UHGV virus genome: UHGV-0219172
Origin: a virus
DNA: 31,814 nt
Strand: one strand, 5' to 3'
Positions 1 through 31,814 of the stretch are shown here, piece after piece (within the stretch, counting starts at the first letter, position 1; the number at the start of each line of letters is the position of its first letter). Under the pieces are notes generated by a model. It saw only the letters and a list, made by a program, of their open reading frames with translations, did not search any database and had not been told where the DNA came from. Both the position numbers and the translations under genes were made by a program.

Positions 1-138
1 CATAACCTGAATCTGAGGCAGCACCTGGCACGGCTGGGACGGAAGTCGCTGTCGTTCTCAAAATCGGTGGAGCTGCATGACAAAGTCATCGGGCATTATC
101 TGAACATAAAACACTATCAATAAGTTGGAGTCATTACC
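1..138 (+). mobile_element. insB: IS1 right end (partial; window begins inside the element), includes insB C-terminus (1-123) and terminal inverted repeat
   Basis: Frame 1 reads ...[40 protein letters not shown] (stop 121-123), followed by ...AAGTTGGAGTCATTACC ending at 138. Both match my recollection of the IS1 InsB C-terminus and IS1 terminal repeat (reverse complement GGTAATGACTCCAACTTATTGATAG). Confidence 0.75.
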
Positions 139-305
139 AAAGCCCCCATGGAGTTACCCTGAAGGGCCTCAATGTCCGTAATTCCTACTTATGTAGGAAA
201 TGTTGTACAGAACATTTATTATAATCCTATTCAATTATAATAATCATGCCATTATTATATTTAAACACTAGAGAGTGTCGTTGGTATTTAATGGGGGAAG
301 GTGAG

Positions 306-623
306 ATGAAAAAGATAGCTGCTATATCATTAATTAGTATTTTTATTATGTCTGGTTGTGCTGTGCATAATGATGAGACAAGTATCGGTAAATTTGGTCT
401 TGCATATAAAAGTAATATTCAGCGTAAACTCGATAACCAATACTACACCGAAGCCGAAGCTTCTTTAGCCAGGGGTAGAATATCTGGTGCAGAAAATATA
501 GTAAAAAATGATGCAACTCATTTCTGTGTTACTCAGGGCAAAAAAATGCAAATAGTTGAGCTGAAGACAGAAGGTGTAGGATTACATGGTGTCGCTCGTC
601 TGACATTCAAATGTGGAGAGTGA
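306..623 (+). CDS. small putative lipoprotein (105 aa), unknown function; outside the prophage
   Basis: ATG at 306 preceded by a purine-rich SD-like stretch. N-terminus MKKIAAISLISIFIMSGC is a typical lipoprotein signal peptide with an M-S-G-C lipobox. Visibly AT-rich. An in-frame ATG at 291 is a less likely start. Confidence 0.6.
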   Translation: MKKIAAISLISIFIMSGCAVHNDETSIGKFGLAYKSNIQRKLDNQYYTEAEASLARGRISGAENIVKNDATHFCVTQGKKMQIVELKTEGVGLHGVARLTFKCGE

Positions 624-782
624 GAATATTTTTTGGTAAGCGTCAAATATGCGCGTTCTGGCTGTGCGTAGCCGGAACCTGTGGGAGCACGATGCCGATA
701 AGTGAAAGGCATCGTGCTATGAAGGAGGATTCTATCGATGTGGTCAATGGAAGACGGTTACCAGAGATAGGGCTTATGCATA

Positions 783-888: not shown

Positions 889-1902
889 TTACTCTACTGT
901 GGACACTGTGTGGACACTCTCGGCCTCAGTACCACCTCTCAGCGGATTAAGAGAAATGGCGTCCTGAAGGTACTCTGGAGCAAAATGAGCGTAAACCATA
1001 GTTTGCTCAATCCGCGTGTGACCTAGTATCCGTTGTAGCGTGATAATACTTCCTCCATTAATCATGAAATGAGTGGCAAAGCTGTGCCTTAGTGCATGTG
1101 TGGCTTGCCCCATTGGCAAATCCGGTTTTATTGCTTTCATTGTTCGTCTGAAGCGAGGGTAATCAGCATCAGGGAATAAAAAACCTCGTTTGTTATCCGC
1201 GATCATTTTGGCAACAGCCTCTGAGATCGGGACGGTGCGTGGTTTGTTTGTTTTCGTTTTAACAAACGTGACGCGGTTATGAATGATATTTTCTGCTTTC
1301 AAACGAGCTGCTTCTCCCCAACGTGCTCCAGTACTCAGGCAAAGAATCGCAATCTTTTTGTTGTCGCCGTCAAGAGCTGCGAGCAGTAAGGCAATTTCTT
1401 CCTGCGTGAGATAGCCTGTGTCTGGTTTTTCCTCCTTAAGCCTTTTTGTCCCTCTGATAGGGTGCTCACCAAAGTATAACTCCGCTTCAATCAGGGCTGT
1501 AAACATGCCGCTAATACATGTTAAATCACGATTGATACTCGAAGGTTTAATACCCTGACTTCTTCGGGTGGCGCAGTATTGGCTGATAAGCGATTTCGTA
1601 ATTTGAAATGCGCATGGGTCATTCGTTATTTTTGTGAAGATTTCAATTTTTCCAAGATTAGATTTCCCATGCTCTTCGTGTTTACCCTTTAAATCCCACC
1701 AGATCTGTGTCAGCTCCGACAGACGTCGCTTGTCTGTTGGTTTTGATAGCCATTCTTTATTGTGGTGGTTGTACAACGTGTATTTCTCGAAAGCGACAGC
1801 TTCGCTTTTCTTATCAAACTTCCTACGGATGCGTTTTCCATTACGTCCAGTAGGGCGGATGTCCACTTCATATCGACCATCATCGAGTTTTTTGATTGCC
1901 AT
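889..1902 (-). CDS. int: P2-type tyrosine integrase
   Basis: 337-aa ORF adjacent to attL. C-terminal region contains ...HALRHSFATHFMINGGSIITLQRILGHTRIEQTMVYAH..., the tyrosine-recombinase R-H-R-Y catalytic region. Lies downstream of the C repressor gene as in P2. Confidence 0.9.
   Translation of the reverse strand: MAIKKLDDGRYEVDIRPTGRNGKRIRRKFDKKSEAVAFEKYTLYNHHNKEWLSKPTDKRRLSELTQIWWDLKGKHEEHGKSNLGKIEIFTKITNDPCAFQITKSLISQYCATRRSQGIKPSSINRDLTCISGMFTALIEAELYFGEHPIRGTKRLKEEKPDTGYLTQEEIALLLAALDGDNKKIAILCLSTGARWGEAARLKAENIIHNRVTFVKTKTNKPRTVPISEAVAKMIADNKRGFLFPDADYPRFRRTMKAIKPDLPMGQATHALRHSFATHFMINGGSIITLQRILGHTRIEQTMVYAHFAPEYLQDAISLNPLRGGTEAESVHTVSTVE
898..917. promoter_or_regulatory. candidate Int arm-type binding sites: two direct TGTGGACAC repeats spaced 11 bp
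   Basis: TGTGGACAC at 898-906 and 909-917, inside the last codons of int. Matches recalled P2 Int arm-site consensus TGTGGACA. Confidence 0.5.
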
Positions 1903-6632: not shown

Positions 6633-6735
6633 TGATTTAATGAAATTTCGGAGTCATAAATATTGTGTATTTAACTAGATGATTGCAATATAAGTGCTTA
6701 TTATTTATGCGATTATAGCCATAACGGAGCTGAGT

Positions 6736-7665
6736 ATGAGTGTTGCAAGGCATCATCATTTTTTATCCCAATGTTATTTGAAAGGGTTTACAAGTAATGG
6801 GGGGAAAAAATCAAAATTAACTGTAATAGATTTAAAGGAGCGCAAAACCTTTGAGAGTAATACTCGCAATGTCGGGGGGGTTAGAGATTTCAACCGATTA
6901 GAATTGGATGGAGTTGACCCAAACTATCTCGAGAGTTCTCTTGCAGAGTTTGAAGGCAGTGTAGCTACTCATTTAAGAAAACTTGAGGAGGGGGGCGAGT
7001 TTTCAGGCGAAACCAAAGATGTTATTCTGGAGTTTATTTCCTTATTGGCAATACGTACGCCTGCTCAGCGAGAACATTTATCATCTCCATTGAAACAAAT
7101 AGCAAAGTTTATCATGAAATCCTCAGTTAGTTCGGCTGAGCGTTGGGACGATTGCAAATTAGCTTATGAGAAAGAAATGGGTGAGTCTTTGCCATATGAT
7201 CTCGCTTACGAAAAAATTAAAAATTTTGTGGATGGGGATAATTTCGAAATCAATGTAATCAGAGAGTTCATGATAGATATGGAAATGAAATGTGTACCTG
7301 TTATCACCAAGTTGTTGCATCAACGCAACTGGTCACTTATGACCATATCTGATGGGCAAGGGTCATTTATAACTTCAGATAACCCAGTTTGCTTAATGTG
7401 GACTAATCCTGAATTAGCACGAGGCCCTTATTCCCCCGGGTTTGGTGTAAAAGACACTTTAGTTTTGTTCCCAGTATCAAAAAACCTTCTTTTGGCGGGC
7501 GAGTTTGATGGTCATGAGGGTGTATTCAGTTGTAATGAGGAGCAGGCTGCGGTCTTCAATACTTCAGTCATTCGGCATACCGCAGAAAGAATATTTTCAT
7601 CTAATGATAATTTCAAATTTTTAGACTCATCTAAAAAAATGAAGCAAGGCAAAAGCCTGGTTTGA
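6736..7665 (+). CDS. cargo gene at the A-cos (tin/old) position: DUF4238-like protein, candidate single-gene anti-phage defence
   Basis: ATG 6736 with GGAG SD (6726-6729). The track start at 6694 is GTG. N-terminus HHFLSQCYLKGF and internal ITSDNPV resemble recalled DUF4238 signatures. Visibly AT-rich relative to the flanking phage genes. Confidence 0.55.
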   Translation: MSVARHHHFLSQCYLKGFTSNGGKKSKLTVIDLKERKTFESNTRNVGGVRDFNRLELDGVDPNYLESSLAEFEGSVATHLRKLEEGGEFSGETKDVILEFISLLAIRTPAQREHLSSPLKQIAKFIMKSSVSSAERWDDCKLAYEKEMGESLPYDLAYEKIKNFVDGDNFEINVIREFMIDMEMKCVPVITKLLHQRNWSLMTISDGQGSFITSDNPVCLMWTNPELARGPYSPGFGVKDTLVLFPVSKNLLLAGEFDGHEGVFSCNEEQAAVFNTSVIRHTAERIFSSNDNFKFLDSSKKMKQGKSLV

Positions 7666-17453: not shown

Positions 17454-18197
17454 TTATCTGGTTAAATAAGTGAGCTCACTCTCTTTAGGTATTAGCTGAG
17501 TGTCTCCTCCCCATTCGTTCATGATGTTTTTTCTCGCATTCCAGTATTCTTGGTAAGTATCTTGATGAACAGTGTAGATACTTGCTAAAAGCCAGTGTTG
17601 ATACTTAAGAGTCGTGTATTGGTATTCTTCTATTATCGGTAAAATGAATAAGTTTTTTTGCTTTAGTGAGATTAAATATTCTTTTGTTTGTTTGGTGGTT
17701 CTGTCATTGTTTAAGATTCTTTCAATCTTAAATGAAAAGCCGTGCATGTTTATATTTCTTTGGAGGTGCATGAATGATGATATTGATGGGGCGATCATGT
17801 TTTGATGCGTCAGGATGTTTCTTAAATCCTCCATTAATTTTATTACTGGATTATTTCGGAATTCATGATTGATGAATGCCTCTGATTTGATTTTAATGTC
17901 GGCAATATTTAATGCTTTTGTTTTAAGTAGGTTGCGCGTTGAATCTCTAAATGATAATGCTGAAGATATATAATTGAAAAGGTGTCTTGATATGTTTAAA
18001 TGTTCTTTTTTAAATTTGTCTCTGTTAAATGAATGACGGGAAACAATGTCAGGGGAGTTGAATTTGCTTAATTCATGTTGGACAACTTCGTAATTGGCAA
18101 TATGCATATGTCCAAGTAAATTGGTGTCGGAGATTTTTAAATACTCTTGGTGGGCGATGGTGTCTTTTTGATTTTCCCAGATTTGATATTTATCCAT
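17454..18197 (-). CDS. cargo gene at the S-V (P2 orf30) position: 247-aa protein of unknown family with two RNxxxH motifs, candidate HEPN-like defence/abortive-infection protein
   Basis: Antisense to the late operon, with its own SD (AAGGAA upstream of the minus-strand ATG). Visibly AT-rich. Motifs LRNILTH (R126 to H131) and QRNINMH (R147 to H152) fit the HEPN Rx4-6H pattern. I recognise no family. Confidence 0.5.
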   Translation of the reverse strand: MDKYQIWENQKDTIAHQEYLKISDTNLLGHMHIANYEVVQHELSKFNSPDIVSRHSFNRDKFKKEHLNISRHLFNYISSALSFRDSTRNLLKTKALNIADIKIKSEAFINHEFRNNPVIKLMEDLRNILTHQNMIAPSISSFMHLQRNINMHGFSFKIERILNNDRTTKQTKEYLISLKQKNLFILPIIEEYQYTTLKYQHWLLASIYTVHQDTYQEYWNARKNIMNEWGGDTQLIPKESELTYLTR

Positions 18198-20706: not shown

Positions 20707-22635
20707 ATGAGCACAAAATTCAGAACCGTTATCACCACTGCCGGTGCAGCAAAGCTGGCAGCGGCAACCGCGCCTGGAGGGCGGAAGGTCAACATTACCA
20801 CGATGGCCGTCGGGGATGGCGGTGGTAAATTGCCTGTCCCGGATGCCGGACAGACCGGGCTTATCCATGAAGTCTGGCGACATGCGCTGAACAAAATCAG
20901 CCAGGACAAACGAAACAGTAATTATATTATCGCAGAGCTGGTTATTCCGCCGGAGGTGGGCGGTTTCTGGATGCGTGAGCTTGGCCTGTACGATGATGCG
21001 GGAACATTAATTGCCGTGGCGAACATGGCCGAAAGTTATAAGCCAGCTCTTGCCGAAGGCTCAGGGCGTTCGCAGACCTGTCGCATGGTCATCATCGTCA
21101 GCAGTGTGGCCTCAGTGGCGCTGACCATTGACACCACAACGGTGATGGCGACGCAGGATTACGTTGATGACAAAATTGCAGAGCATGAACAGTCACGACG
21201 TCACCCGGACGCCTCGCTGACCGCAAAAGGTTTTACTCAGTTAAGCAGTGCGATCAACAGCACGTCTGAAACACTGGCCGCAACGCCGAAAGCGGTAAAG
21301 GCCGCGTATGATCTTGCTAACGGGAAATACACTGCGCAGGATGCCACCACAGCGCGAAAAGGCCTTGTCCAGCTCAGTAGCGCCACCAACAGCACGTCTG
21401 AAACGCTCGCCGCAACACCAAAAGCGGTAAAGGCAGCATATGACCTTGCTAACGGGAAATACACTGCACAGGACGCCACCACAGCGCGAAAAGGTCTTGT
21501 CCAGCTCAGTAGCGCCACCAACAGCGATTCTGAAACGCTTGCAGCAACGCCAAAGGCGGTTAAGACAGCGTATGACCTTGCTAACGGGAAATACACTGCG
21601 CAGGATGCCACCACGGCGCGAAAAGGCCTTGTCCAGCTCAGTAGCGCCACCAACAGTGATTCTGAAACGCTGGCCGCAACACCAAAAGCAGTGAAGTCTG
21701 CCTATGACAATGCTGAAAAACGTCTTCAGAAAGATCAGAACGGTGCGGATATTCCGGGAAAGGATACCTTCACGAAAAATATCGGTGCCTGTCGTGCTTA
21801 TAGCGGCGCTTTGAGCACTGAAGCCGGAAACTGGACAACCGCTCAGTTTATTGAATGGCTGGATTCCCGTGGTGCATTTAATCATCCGTACTGGATGTGC
21901 AAATGTTCATGGTCATACGGCAATAATAAAATTATTACCGATACTGGCTGTGGAACTATTCATCTTGCAGGTTGCGTTATTGAGGTTATGGGTAATAAAG
22001 GTGCCATGACCATCCGTGTAACAACACCAAGCACTTCCACCGGAGGCGGCACCACTAACGCTCAATTCACTTATATTAATCATGGTGATGCTTATGCTCC
22101 TGGCTGGCGACGAGACTACAACACGAAAAACCAGCAGCCTGCATTTGCTTTAGGGAAAACAGGAAGCACTGTCGGAAATGATAAAGCTGTTGGCTGGAAC
22201 TGGAATAGCGGGGTCTATCAAGCAAATATTGGTGGCGCATCGACATTAATCCTCCATTTCAATATGAGCGAGGGGAGTTGCCCTGCCGTACAGTTCCGTG
22301 TGAATTATAAGAACGGCGGTATTTATTATCGTTCAGCGCGTGATGGTTATGGATTTGAGGCTGACTGGTCAGAGTTTTACACCACAACCCGCAAACCCTC
22401 TGCGGGAGATGTTGGTGCATATACCAAAGATGAATCGGATTCTCGCTATGTACGAGATATTCGCCTGGGCACACGTGTTGTTCAGACTATGCAAAAAGGT
22501 GTGATGTATGAGAAAGCAGGGCACGTAATTACCGGGCTTGGTATTGTCGGTGAAGTCGATGGTGATGACCCCGCAGTATTCAGACCAATACAAAAATACA
22601 TCAATGGAACATGGTATAACGTCGCACAGGTGTAA
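20707..22635 (+). CDS. H: tail fiber protein H with internal 44-aa tandem repeats and a lower-GC C-terminal domain
   Basis: 642-aa ORF after I. N-terminus conserved P2-like; the C-terminal third is visibly more AT-rich. Confidence 0.85.
   Translation: MSTKFRTVITTAGAAKLAAATAPGGRKVNITTMAVGDGGGKLPVPDAGQTGLIHEVWRHALNKISQDKRNSNYIIAELVIPPEVGGFWMRELGLYDDAGTLIAVANMAESYKPALAEGSGRSQTCRMVIIVSSVASVALTIDTTTVMATQDYVDDKIAEHEQSRRHPDASLTAKGFTQLSSAINSTSETLAATPKAVKAAYDLANGKYTAQDATTARKGLVQLSSATNSTSETLAATPKAVKAAYDLANGKYTAQDATTARKGLVQLSSATNSDSETLAATPKAVKTAYDLANGKYTAQDATTARKGLVQLSSATNSDSETLAATPKAVKSAYDNAEKRLQKDQNGADIPGKDTFTKNIGACRAYSGALSTEAGNWTTAQFIEWLDSRGAFNHPYWMCKCSWSYGNNKIITDTGCGTIHLAGCVIEVMGNKGAMTIRVTTPSTSTGGGTTNAQFTYINHGDAYAPGWRRDYNTKNQQPAFALGKTGSTVGNDKAVGWNWNSGVYQANIGGASTLILHFNMSEGSCPAVQFRVNYKNGGIYYRSARDGYGFEADWSEFYTTTRKPSAGDVGAYTKDESDSRYVRDIRLGTRVVQTMQKGVMYEKAGHVITGLGIVGEVDGDDPAVFRPIQKYINGTWYNVAQV
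21229..21709 (+). repeat. in-frame 132-bp tandem repeat, about 3.6 copies, inside tail fiber gene H
   Basis: Units begin at 21229, 21361, 21493 and 21625, each encoding G(L/F)(V/T)QLSSA(T/I)NS(T/D)SETLAATPKAVK(A/T/S)AYDLANGKYTAQDATTARK. Confidence 0.9.
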
Positions 22636-23456: not shown

Positions 23457-24683
23457 ATGTTACAGTTCAGCTTTGTATCAAATGACGTTGTTATGACTTA
23501 CGACGGTGACAGCGGAGAACAAATAATTTGGGTTTGGGAGAGTTTAAATAAATTTCAAACAGTATGCATTTCACGAATTTTTAACTTTCAACTCCAGGAC
23601 TTGAGAAACCCACCGTCAACCGTTCAGGATTTTAATGATTACGAATATTCCTTTAATTTTGGCACGCTTAATAATGAATACATAACAGTTCCGGGACGGA
23701 TTCTAAGCATTAATCGAGATGTCCTTATACATAAGTCCATCAAGCTTGAAAGGAAAGTATTTGCGTCAGAACGCAACGTCTCCATTTTTGGTCGGCTTTC
23801 AAAACTACTCGATCACACTAATCCCATCATCATCGGAGGAGATAAGCCGGAAGCTATACCAAAAAGCGTATTCCAGGAGTTGCAAAGTAAATTCCACAAC
23901 ACAGGGGAACTGGATCGCTATGCTAATGCAAGGGTTCACGCTATTCTCGCAGGTTATCTTGATGGTATGAAAGATGCTCGCGAACGGTATGAACATTACC
24001 TAAACAGAAAAACAGTGATCAGAAAAACCGACAAACTGGATTTAGAAGTTTTAAATAAGCTCGAAATTGAGAAATATACACTCATAAGAGACATTATCCA
24101 GGATGCGTTGAATAACAAAACTAACTTGTCTGAAGATGACTGGCAGAGCCTGATGATACCCTTCATCACATTACTTTTTCCAAAATATATCAAGGTCCTC
24201 GAGAAGGTTAAAATTTTCGACTATTACTCTAATCCTTCGGCTAAAACAAATCGGTTTATAGACATTGCACTGGTGGATGCAAACGGCAACCTTGATATCA
24301 TCGAAGTCAAAAAGCCGTTTGATGATAAGATCCTTCGCAAGACGCCCTATCGCGATAACTATATTCCTACATCAGAACTTAGCGGCGGTATTATGCAGGC
24401 TGAAAAGTATATTTTTCATTTATCTAAATGGGGTGTTAAGGGTGAAAAAGAGCTTACGAATGCCTACAAGAATTCTCTGCCAGCGGGAATGTGTATTCGT
24501 ATATCTAACCCAAAAGCCATCATCATTGTCGGACGCGATCAGATAGCGAACGGTAACATGACCGACGGTCAGTTGCTTGATTTTGAGATAATCAAACGTA
24601 AGTACGCCAACATGATAGACATATTGACGTACGACGACCTGTTGCGTCGACTTAATAATACGATTGAAGCATTGAAAGGTTGA
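23457..24683 (+). CDS. cargo gene at the G-FI (Z/fun) position: 408-aa protein with a C-terminal PD-(D/E)xK nuclease-like core, possibly Shedu (DUF4263)-like; candidate anti-phage defence
   Basis: ATG 23457 with GAGG SD. Visibly AT-rich, flanked by about 290 bp of non-coding DNA on each side. C-terminal region FIDIALVDANGNLDIIEVKKP ... QAEKY gives D269/D280, E283-x-K285 and Q314...Y318, a restriction-endonuclease-fold pattern. Confidence 0.5.
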   Translation: MLQFSFVSNDVVMTYDGDSGEQIIWVWESLNKFQTVCISRIFNFQLQDLRNPPSTVQDFNDYEYSFNFGTLNNEYITVPGRILSINRDVLIHKSIKLERKVFASERNVSIFGRLSKLLDHTNPIIIGGDKPEAIPKSVFQELQSKFHNTGELDRYANARVHAILAGYLDGMKDARERYEHYLNRKTVIRKTDKLDLEVLNKLEIEKYTLIRDIIQDALNNKTNLSEDDWQSLMIPFITLLFPKYIKVLEKVKIFDYYSNPSAKTNRFIDIALVDANGNLDIIEVKKPFDDKILRKTPYRDNYIPTSELSGGIMQAEKYIFHLSKWGVKGEKELTNAYKNSLPAGMCIRISNPKAIIIVGRDQIANGNMTDGQLLDFEIIKRKYANMIDILTYDDLLRRLNNTIEALKG

Positions 24684-31353: not shown

Positions 31354-31572
31354 ATGTTTCATTGTCCTTTATGCCAGCATGCCGCACATGCGCGTACAAG
31401 TCGCTATATCACTGACACGACAAAAGAGCGTTATCACCAGTGCCAGAACGTGAATTGCAGCGCCACGTTCATCACTTATGAGTCGGTACAGAGATACATC
31501 GTGAAGCCGGGAGAAGTCCACGCCGTGAGGCCGCACCCGTTGCCGTCAGGGCAGCAAATTATGTGGATGTAA
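31354..31572 (+). CDS. ogr: Ogr late-gene transcriptional activator (zinc finger)
   Basis: Starts MFHCPLCQHAAHARTSRY..., with CPLC...CQNVNC four-cysteine zinc finger, 72 aa. The track ORF extends upstream to 31291. Confidence 0.9.
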   Translation: MFHCPLCQHAAHARTSRYITDTTKERYHQCQNVNCSATFITYESVQRYIVKPGEVHAVRPHPLPSGQQIMWM

Positions 31573-31584
31573 TTACAAACAGAA

Positions 31585-31610
31585 AGCCCCTCAGTCGAGG
31601 GGCTTTTTTT
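31585..31610 (+). terminator. rho-independent terminator after ogr
   Basis: Stem AGCCCCTC / GAGGGGCT with loop AGTC, followed by a seven-T run. Confidence 0.8.
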
Positions 31611-31615
31611 GTCGA

Positions 31616-31634
31616 TGTGGTCAATGTGTGGACT
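31616..31634. promoter_or_regulatory. candidate Int arm-type sites on the ogr-side arm (TGTGGTCA and TGTGGACT, 11-bp spacing)
   Basis: Two TGTGG-containing direct repeats at 31616-31623 and 31627-31634, about 40 bp from the attR core, with the same 11-bp periodicity as the int-side sites. Confidence 0.4.
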
Positions 31635-31674
31635 TAACCAGAAATAAATCCTTTTATTTCAATTTGTTGTACGT

Positions 31675-31701
31675 AAAAAATAAGCCCGTGTAAGGGAGAT
31701 T
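31675..31701. repeat. attR core: second copy of the 27-bp att direct repeat
   Basis: Identical to 783-809. Confidence 0.85.
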
Positions 31702-31814
31702 ACACAGGCTAAGGAGGTGGTTCCTGGTACAGCTAGCATTTTATGGGTTATGTTTTTCAGCGAAACGGATGATAACCTTAATAAATGCAGCTGTATGTGA
31801 TCGGTTTCTAAGAA

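Follow-up and report, generated by a model that had tools for sequence, protein, structure and literature searches.

Why should a 15-bp sequence lying just outside a P2-like prophage recur, letter for letter, just inside the opposite end of the same prophage? The window analyzed here is a single strand of 31,814 nucleotides (UHGV virus genome UHGV-0219172). It carries the 15-mer TCGATGTGGTCAATG at positions 735–749, in the left flank, and at positions 31612–31626, within the prophage, both on the plus strand. An earlier note, made from the letters of the window, had described both copies and had proposed that the left flank is the relic of an earlier P2-like element whose attR was reused as an attachment site. 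The two positions were confirmed, and they are the only copies in the window, even if two mismatches are allowed.

The DNA between the two copies of a 27-bp core, AAAAAATAAGCCCGTGTAAGGGAGATT (783–809 and 31675–31701, both on the plus strand), is a P2-like prophage with 96.8% identity to phage P2 over the aligned 80% of the query. The attL core (783–809) is identical to the attR copy and to the attP core of P2. The prophage occupies locI, the classical primary site of P2, in the 3' end of the sRNA gene cyaR. This gene (RyeE, 31678–31763, minus strand), whose 3' end is the integration target, matches the Rfam family RF00112 with 100.7 bits (E = 3e-19, gathering score 47), and the attR core overlaps its terminator. 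The integrase gene of the prophage (889–1902, minus strand) encodes Int_N and Phage_integrase domains; downstream of it lie a gene for an HTH repressor-like protein and cox. The Int sites of the P' arm, CTGTGGACACTGTGTGGACA, fall at approximately 897–923 (114–140 nt from the start of the core) when transferred from the P2 annotation. The right end comprises ogr (31354–31572, plus strand, Ogr_Delta, E = 1.1e-21), the rho-independent terminator of ogr and the F operon (31583–31610, plus strand), the Int P-arm binding region of the resident prophage (31612–31639, plus strand) and the IHF site of the P arm (31643–31676, plus strand). Terminator and IHF site were transferred from the P2 annotation, and the Int region was mapped by alignment from the P2 record AF063097.

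Within the prophage, a Shedu defence gene (SduA, 23457–24683, plus strand; PADLOC PDLC04067, E = 3.7e-218; Pfam SduA_C) is flanked by a tail-fibre assembly gene and FI, which corresponds to the Z/fun position of P2. The gene for a DUF4238 protein (6694–7665, plus strand; PADLOC 'DUF4238-Pers', E = 1.8e-219) is located between replication gene A and portal gene Q, the old/tin cargo position of P2. An ORF of 247 aa at 17454–18197, without a match in Pfam or PADLOC, is encoded on the minus strand, opposite to the surrounding late genes, and may represent further cargo. The tail-fibre ORF (642 aa, 20707–22635) contains three overlapping copies of a 226-nt unit (21225–21714), which are 132 nt apart and 85–86% identical.

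In the P2 record AF063097, a protein_bind feature 'Int, P arm' is annotated at 24293–24320 (28 nt), followed by an IHF site at 24324–24357 and the attP core at 24356–24382. The right 15-mer of the window is exactly the first 15 nt of this Int P-arm region, in agreement with the earlier observation that it overlaps a candidate Int arm-type site. It holds the first of two arm-type repeats, TGTGGTCA; the second repeat reads TGTGGAC. The consensus of P2-type arm repeats is tgTGGaCa (PMC3448106). From the end of the 15-mer to the core we measured 33 nt at attL and 48 nt at attR, which agrees with the distances of 34 and 49 bp given before. Shuffling of the window yielded a chance expectation of 0.07 matches to the 15-mer with two mismatches allowed. 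For two 100-nt stretches to the left of the cores, a hand calculation gave a probability of 86 × 86 / 4^15, or about 7e-6, of sharing an exact 15-mer, so that the match is indeed as improbable as had been assumed. The similarity continues past the 15-mer: 29 of 40 positions are identical in an ungapped comparison of 730–769 with 31607–31646, and the alignment of the flank with the prophage arm reaches the core if a gap of 15–16 nt is allowed.

Genuine P2-type arms beside cyaR are built to one plan in many genera, consisting of a terminator hairpin, TCGATGTGGTCAATGTGTGGAC, 7 nt, GAAATAAATCCTTTTATTTCA, approximately 13 nt and the core. The E. coli flank aligns with these arms in the same frame from the 15-mer through to the core. 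On the basis of this alignment and the P2 annotation we assigned positions 730–782 (plus strand) as the relic of a P2-type P arm. Its first repeat is intact, as the 15-mer contains a TGTGGTCA identical to the P2 repeat. The second repeat has decayed to GGAAGAC (versus TGTGGAC, 4/7 identities with a 1-nt shift), which leaves only half of the repeat pair. Farther towards the core, ACCAGAGATA of the flank matches ACCAGAAATA of the genuine arms, and the core-proximal TTATGCAT is the counterpart of TTACGCGT or TTGTACGT. In the common allele, to which the window belongs, about 15 nt of the segment annotated as the IHF site in P2 are absent, and the IHF-site segment is thus largely deleted. The relic is found on the proper side of the core and on the proper strand. 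Its distance from the core is 33 nt for the window allele and 44 nt for the EE72d allele, compared with ~48 nt in genuine arms. With the second repeat decayed and the IHF site largely deleted, the flank does not qualify as a functional P arm.

A Smith-Waterman alignment between the flank and the arm of the resident prophage, with the core left out, resulted in a score of 34. Shuffled sequences scored 12.9 ± 2.2, and 0 of 5000 shuffles reached 34. The alignment to P2-like attR regions that the earlier note had suggested as a check thus gave a same-frame match up to the core. After removal of the 15-mer, the observed score was reached by 111 of 5000 shuffles for the window allele and by 5 of 5000 for the EE72d allele. 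An arm profile built from 13 genuine arms, with the core and the E. coli flanks left out, matched every E. coli flank tested (E = 0.003–0.006, with an aligned part of only ~19 nt) and had no match in Escherichia sp. E1V33. Outside these ~19 nt the identity to the arms is only about 50–67%, and the common allele requires the 15-nt gap. A composite 'ancestral' relic assembled from two alleles scores very well; since it is cherry-picked, it was given no weight as evidence.

At 770–796 an inverted repeat of 8 bp, GGGCTTAT and ATAAGCCC, brackets the A-run with which the attL core begins. This repeat arose through the deletion that characterizes the common relic allele. Read on the cyaR strand, it could allow the 3' half of the terminator to pair with downstream read-through RNA.

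To describe the distribution of the flank in E. coli, an empty-site query, in which the two flanks are joined through a single core, was searched against 5,426 complete E. coli genomes. It was found as one place with at least 80% coverage in 5,385 of them, and the 93-nt arm-like stretch at 690–782 is present in 5,415 of the 5,426 with 91–100% identity. The left copy thus belongs to conserved host DNA that ~99.8% of complete E. coli genomes have in common, with or without a prophage. A relic with this distribution must be old and species-wide rather than strain-specific. The alleles differ in how much of the arm they retain. About 149 genomes carry the EE72d-type allele with 12 extra bases, in which GGGATCAATCCGTCT matches GAAATAAATCCTTTT of the IHF-site segment with 10 of 15 bases kept. 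In DETEC-P649 the core-proximal sequence is TTACGCGT, identical to that of the K-12 remnant arm (see below). Independently of the arm, a 170-bp AT-rich indel between the yegR stop codon and the flank was observed in FDAARGOS_1296 (1992–2160) and SCU-306; it occurs neither in the window nor in K-12.

The ancestral state of the locus was derived from 120 species-representative Enterobacteriaceae genomes, in which the locus was anchored on the conserved cyaR body among the matches listed; E. fergusonii and the named cryptic clades lie outside this sample. In 70 of the 120 species (among the matches listed) yegS starts ~85 bp from the cyaR terminator, and neither yegR nor arm-like DNA is present. 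Escherichia sp. E1V33, with 93% identity to E. coli in yegS, belongs to this short-spacer group and is the only Escherichia lacking the extra DNA among the matches listed. E. coli retains the ancestral spacer beside yegS, which reads ...GATGAAAGTCGGAGGATAAAAAG/TCAGTTC... (equivalently ...AGTGTAGAGCAGAAAAGAAAAGGTGGAGTCAGAACAGGATGAAAGTCGGAGGATAAAAAG/TCAGTTC...), and the E1V33 spacer enters the core directly at the same point (...GATGAAAGTCGTGAGGCAAAAAATAAGCC..., also ...GATGAAAGTCGTGAGGCAAAAAATAAGCCTGCG...). Homology between the two ends at the A-run that opens the att core. The E. coli DNA that follows the break amounts to ~0.94 kb in FDAARGOS_1296 and ~0.77 kb in K-12-type flanks without the 170-bp indel. 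This segment of ~0.8–0.95 kb, in the following called the yegR islet, consists of yegR and the arm-like stretch and terminates at the intact core; by outgroup comparison its part within the window spans 138–782 (plus strand).

The islet is an insertion relative to the ancestral locus and is placed exactly at the att core. Such an anatomy would be expected if an element had entered at the core and its left part had been lost afterwards. At the left junction in E. coli only ATAAAAAG, the A-run, remains of an attL-side core copy, and for this reason we interpret the junction as a deletion scar and not as a clean attL. The earlier note had pointed to the same locus in prophage-free genomes as a test of the relic idea, and there the segment from yegR to the core proves to be an insertion with respect to the 70 of 120 species. 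It had also held that a 15-mer belonging to conserved host sequence in strains that never carried a P2-like element would speak against a relic. Taken literally, this is what was found, with the 15-mer host-conserved in ~99.8% of genomes; the relic idea nevertheless stands, since the flank is itself an insertion. The E. coli core differs from that of E1V33 and E. albertii only in its left half (GCCCGTGTAAGGG versus GCCTGCGTAAGGG). This difference is consistent with a half supplied by a phage in an attR but is not decisive, as the match of E. coli with P2 in this half could equally reflect adaptation of the phage to its host.

Between 0.16 and 4.3 kb separate yegS and cyaR in 25 sampled species (among the matches listed). 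Islands with a full second core copy of 20–22 nt on the yegS side were found at four loci (L013, L034, L117 and L097), and others retain, like E. coli, only the A-run part. An arm-like stretch beside cyaR is present in ~12 species, for example in E. albertii, Salmonella enterica subsp. diarizonae, Citrobacter, Enterobacter and Trabulsiella; no P2 tail, D, ogr or int genes were detected in these species within the 0.2–7.4 kb examined per locus. Still other species have full prophage right ends at cyaR, some of them with 0.1–1 kb of cargo between ogr and the arm.

Many Enterobacter spp. (L012, L058, L059, L096, L098, L099, L105 and L116) share a conserved island of ~0.55 kb between yegS and cyaR (anchor -669 to -36). 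A small ORF within it stops immediately short of the core (...ELIAWIEEREG*), and the yegS side has a degenerate copy resembling the core. Two Enterobacter hormaechei strains, B56 (L013, CP170191.1) and B17-3 (L096, CP169086.1), are 99.8–99.9% identical to E. coli from the first core base rightwards, over cyaR and yegQ and for at least 3.1 kb in B17-3. To the left of the core they are of the Enterobacter type (~70% identical), and the right side of other Enterobacter is ~82% identical. The chimeric junction is located exactly at the att core (anchor -36) in both chromosomes, which are labelled 'complete'. It could stem from an interspecies transfer resolved by Int at the core or from a hybrid or mis-assembled genome.

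The only gene of the islet in the window is yegR (306–623, plus strand), which encodes a predicted lipoprotein of 105 aa according to the RefSeq annotation of an identical sequence. It has no match in the local Pfam copy, and apart from records that include host flank no phage homologues were found. Homologues belong to the precomputed family PF27694 and are few and distant; they are flanked by IS elements in an Enterobacter and otherwise located in unrelated parts of the chromosome. The lipoprotein gene, which had been suggested to mark a decayed mobile region, does lie inside the inserted segment; a link of the gene to a phage was not found. Nor did tblastx and tblastn searches of the E. coli empty-site flanks with the prophage ends reveal the further degraded P2 gene fragments that had been considered upstream, beyond D'/ogrK of K-12. 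The IS1 copy whose end occupies positions 1–137 had likewise been regarded as a mark of the relic. Its boundary is approximate and was placed from the sequence and partly from the general form of the IS1 end. Homology with IS1-free E. coli flanks resumes at ~138, and strain EC09 has an identical flank with an annotated IS1A transposase directly upstream. Being absent from most flanks, IS1 is a separate, strain-specific insertion that entered the islet later and is not part of the relic.

A perfect hairpin with an 11-bp stem, AGCACGATGCC...GGCATCGTGCT, is located at 686–718 (plus strand), downstream of yegR and 16 nt upstream of the 15-mer. Its calculated energy is -30.8 kcal/mol in an 85-nt context (z = -4.2), and its loop and inner stem end vary among E. 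coli alleles. In genuine arms, the ogr terminator occupies this position. We considered the hairpin as a counterpart of this terminator and rejected it, as it has no T-run, no terminator-like site and no detectable homology.

The direction in which the arm was transferred can be judged from other phages. W-phi and fiAA91-ss have an unrelated core and the same arm plan, GTCGATGTGGAC...ATGTGGAC...GATATAAATCCATTTATATCA. The arm motif is, moreover, repeated in the P' arm on the int side. That P2-like phages with a different core possess the same arm shows that the transfer went from phage to host. The relic-type version of the arm (the 15-mer followed by GAAGAC; GATGTGGTCAATGGAAGAC) gave 118 matches in IMG/VR. 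Junctions of the E. coli attL type, flanked by yegR upstream and int downstream, account for 116 of them, and the other two are chance matches in GC-rich coding sequence; a living phage with the relic-type arm in an attP context was not among the 118. A phage-collection search for an arm nearer to the flank than that of P2 retrieved only the shared core and two records containing host flank, namely 'Phage TP' and vB_EcoM-720R8, a prophage record with gatR-yegS-yegR. The absence of the relic-type arm from attP contexts, together with the same plan in phages with other cores, identifies the host copy as the derived, degraded one.

More than 100 'viral' contigs of E. coli P2-like prophages in IMG/VR (L145–L262) start exactly at the start codon of yegR and hence include ~480 bp of host flank. 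Prophage boundary calls at the cyaR site are systematically too wide.

Based on these results we propose that the left 15-mer is the fossil Int arm site of an ancient P2-type element, whose leftover attR is now the E. coli attB locI. We estimate the probability of this explanation at roughly 85%. The identity with the P arm, the alignment along the arm and the insertion placed at the core all support the original suggestion that the left flank is the relic of an earlier P2-like element with a reused attR. The sequence of events would be as follows. Before the split of the E. coli lineages sampled, an ancient P2-type integrative element would have entered cyaR at its 3' end. A deletion that began within or close to the attL core would then have removed nearly the whole element and left its right end, ~0.8–0.95 kb with yegR, a decaying Int/IHF P arm and an intact core. 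This leftover attR, composed of arm relic, core and cyaR, would have become the attB locI of E. coli. Later P2-like phages, among them the ancestor of the K-12 remnant and the prophage of the window, would have integrated in its core by normal Int/IHF recombination. Integration within the 27-bp core would have placed the old relic just outside attL and the functional arm just inside attR, and the 15-bp direct repeat would be the outcome. Since the islet has no recognizable phage gene, it is solely the arm that identifies the donor as a P2-like phage. We infer that the donor was such a phage rather than another element with a P2-type integrase, and that the relic has no function today.

The origin of the relic could be as proposed and its arm-type site could still be bound by the N-terminal domain of P2 Int, with an effect on integration at locI or on excision from attL. 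In this case the 15-mer would owe its preservation to selection or to conversion from resident prophages. A 27-nt block around the 15-mer, GATTCTATCGATGTGGTCAATGGAAGA, is in fact invariant in 10 diverse E. coli flanks, in which 22 of 126 neighbouring positions vary, and the first repeat is the best-conserved part of genuine arms. With 10 haplotypes, however, the permutation test is marginal (P = 0.047 for a 15-mer without segregating sites, P = 0.063 for a run of that length). Furthermore, the second repeat and the IHF site, both parts of the annotated arm, are decayed or deleted, and a real arm stands 15 nt farther from the core. The attB of P2 is considered to require the core alone. From these sequence patterns continued binding appears unlikely, and it is doubtful that a fossil site still read by the P2 integrase turns locI into a 'primed' attB or attL into a partial attP mimic affecting prophage stability. 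If Int did still read the site, this could help to explain the preference for locI over secondary sites with similar cores, and the locus would offer a natural experiment on attB arm sites and the directionality of tyrosine recombinases.

Quite unlikely in our view is a donor other than a P2-like phage, such as a small island or satellite with a P2-type integrase and arm. In favour of such a donor, the islet has no phage genes, and several species have islands of 0.6–4 kb at this locus without P2 genes, some of them with clean duplicate cores. On the other hand, the 15-mer together with TATCGATG upstream of it is exactly the sequence found behind the ogr terminator of cyaR-integrated P2-like prophages from many genera. 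In K-12 a P2 prophage decayed to a stub of D', ogr and arm at this very site, and full P2-like prophages, including that of the window, occupy it today. A capture in the opposite direction, in which an ancestor of P2 excised aberrantly and took up the E. coli flank as its arm, is very unlikely. Such an excision would place DNA of the left flank beside the core in the phage genome, and the 15-mer is exact in both copies. The arm plan is, however, common to P2-like phages with unrelated cores and hosts and to prophages of many genera, and its motif recurs in the int-side P' arm. The host version is degraded, lacking the second repeat and the IHF site, and did not turn up in any phage attP; moreover, the flank is itself an insertion in E. 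coli. We rejected host capture because W-phi and fiAA91-ss carry the same arm with a different core. Chance similarity, for which nothing speaks except the shortness of the exact match, has a negligible probability and was rejected in view of the shuffle tests, the estimate for the two neighbourhoods, the common strand and side, the similar distance to the core and the similarity extending past the 15-mer.

If a fossil arm of a P2-type element is accepted, the 'bacterial' arm of the primary attachment site of P2 in E. coli is derived from a phage, and yegR is located in an ancient insertion at cyaR and not in the ancestral chromosome. A single locus would then display three stages, a species-wide relic, the K-12 remnant and an intact prophage, as a hotspot at a small-RNA gene accretes and erodes DNA. 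In practical terms, software that sets prophage boundaries at the longest direct repeat could put attL in the wrong place at this site.

The closest known counterpart is the P2 remnant of K-12 (yegZ/D'–ogrK–attR), which has the same site and orientation as the relic. Barreiro and Haggård-Ljungquist reportedly described this remnant at locI in 1992. Like the relic, it is a P2-type right end left after a deletion beginning in the attL core, with an intact core in cyaR. The order in K-12 is relic arm with the 15-mer, a core cut after 18 nt, D', ogrK, full arm and core. K-12 carries both structures because the relic lies outside, to the left of the remnant, and the retention of flank and 15-mer in that position means that the flank copy predates the remnant. 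In a derivative of K-12 MG1655 (L001) the left junction of the remnant, at 2140–2165, is inside the core (AAAAAATAAGCCCGTGTA/GCAGAGTTCTCC) and joins into gene D. With this junction in the core and that of the islet at the A-run of the core, both deletions start in the attL core, which hints at aberrant Int-mediated events rather than random deletion. The two structures differ in age. The K-12 remnant is young; it is ~94–99% identical to P2 proteins, retains ogr together with a full arm and occurs only in K-12-type strains. In the relic, which is older and species-wide, no phage gene is left, and the second Int repeat and most of the IHF site are gone.

A comparison with the P arm of P2 attP and attR reveals the same combination of retention and loss. 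The first repeat and its 5' context are identical and agree with P2 in strand and in the side of the core on which they lie, and ACCAGA-ATA and the core-proximal bases are recognizable. The flank differs from the P2 arm in its second repeat (4/7), the deleted IHF segment of the common allele, a distance of 33 instead of 48 nt to the core, and the lack of ogr and a terminator upstream.

Prophage relics at integration hotspots are a well-known kind of structure. The Salmonella sdsR locus is a noted example of decayed islands and relic att sites at such a hotspot (PMC3333887). The literature we searched, which excluded the primary P2 att papers, contained no prior description of the E. coli cyaR arm relic. 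As in other hotspots at tRNA, tmRNA and sRNA genes, integration at cyaR occurs repeatedly at the 3' end of a small-RNA gene, the 3' end is restored each time and distal remnants accumulate. Unlike other hotspot relics, the remnant described here is fixed across a species and constitutes the 'bacterial' arm of the primary attB of a model phage.
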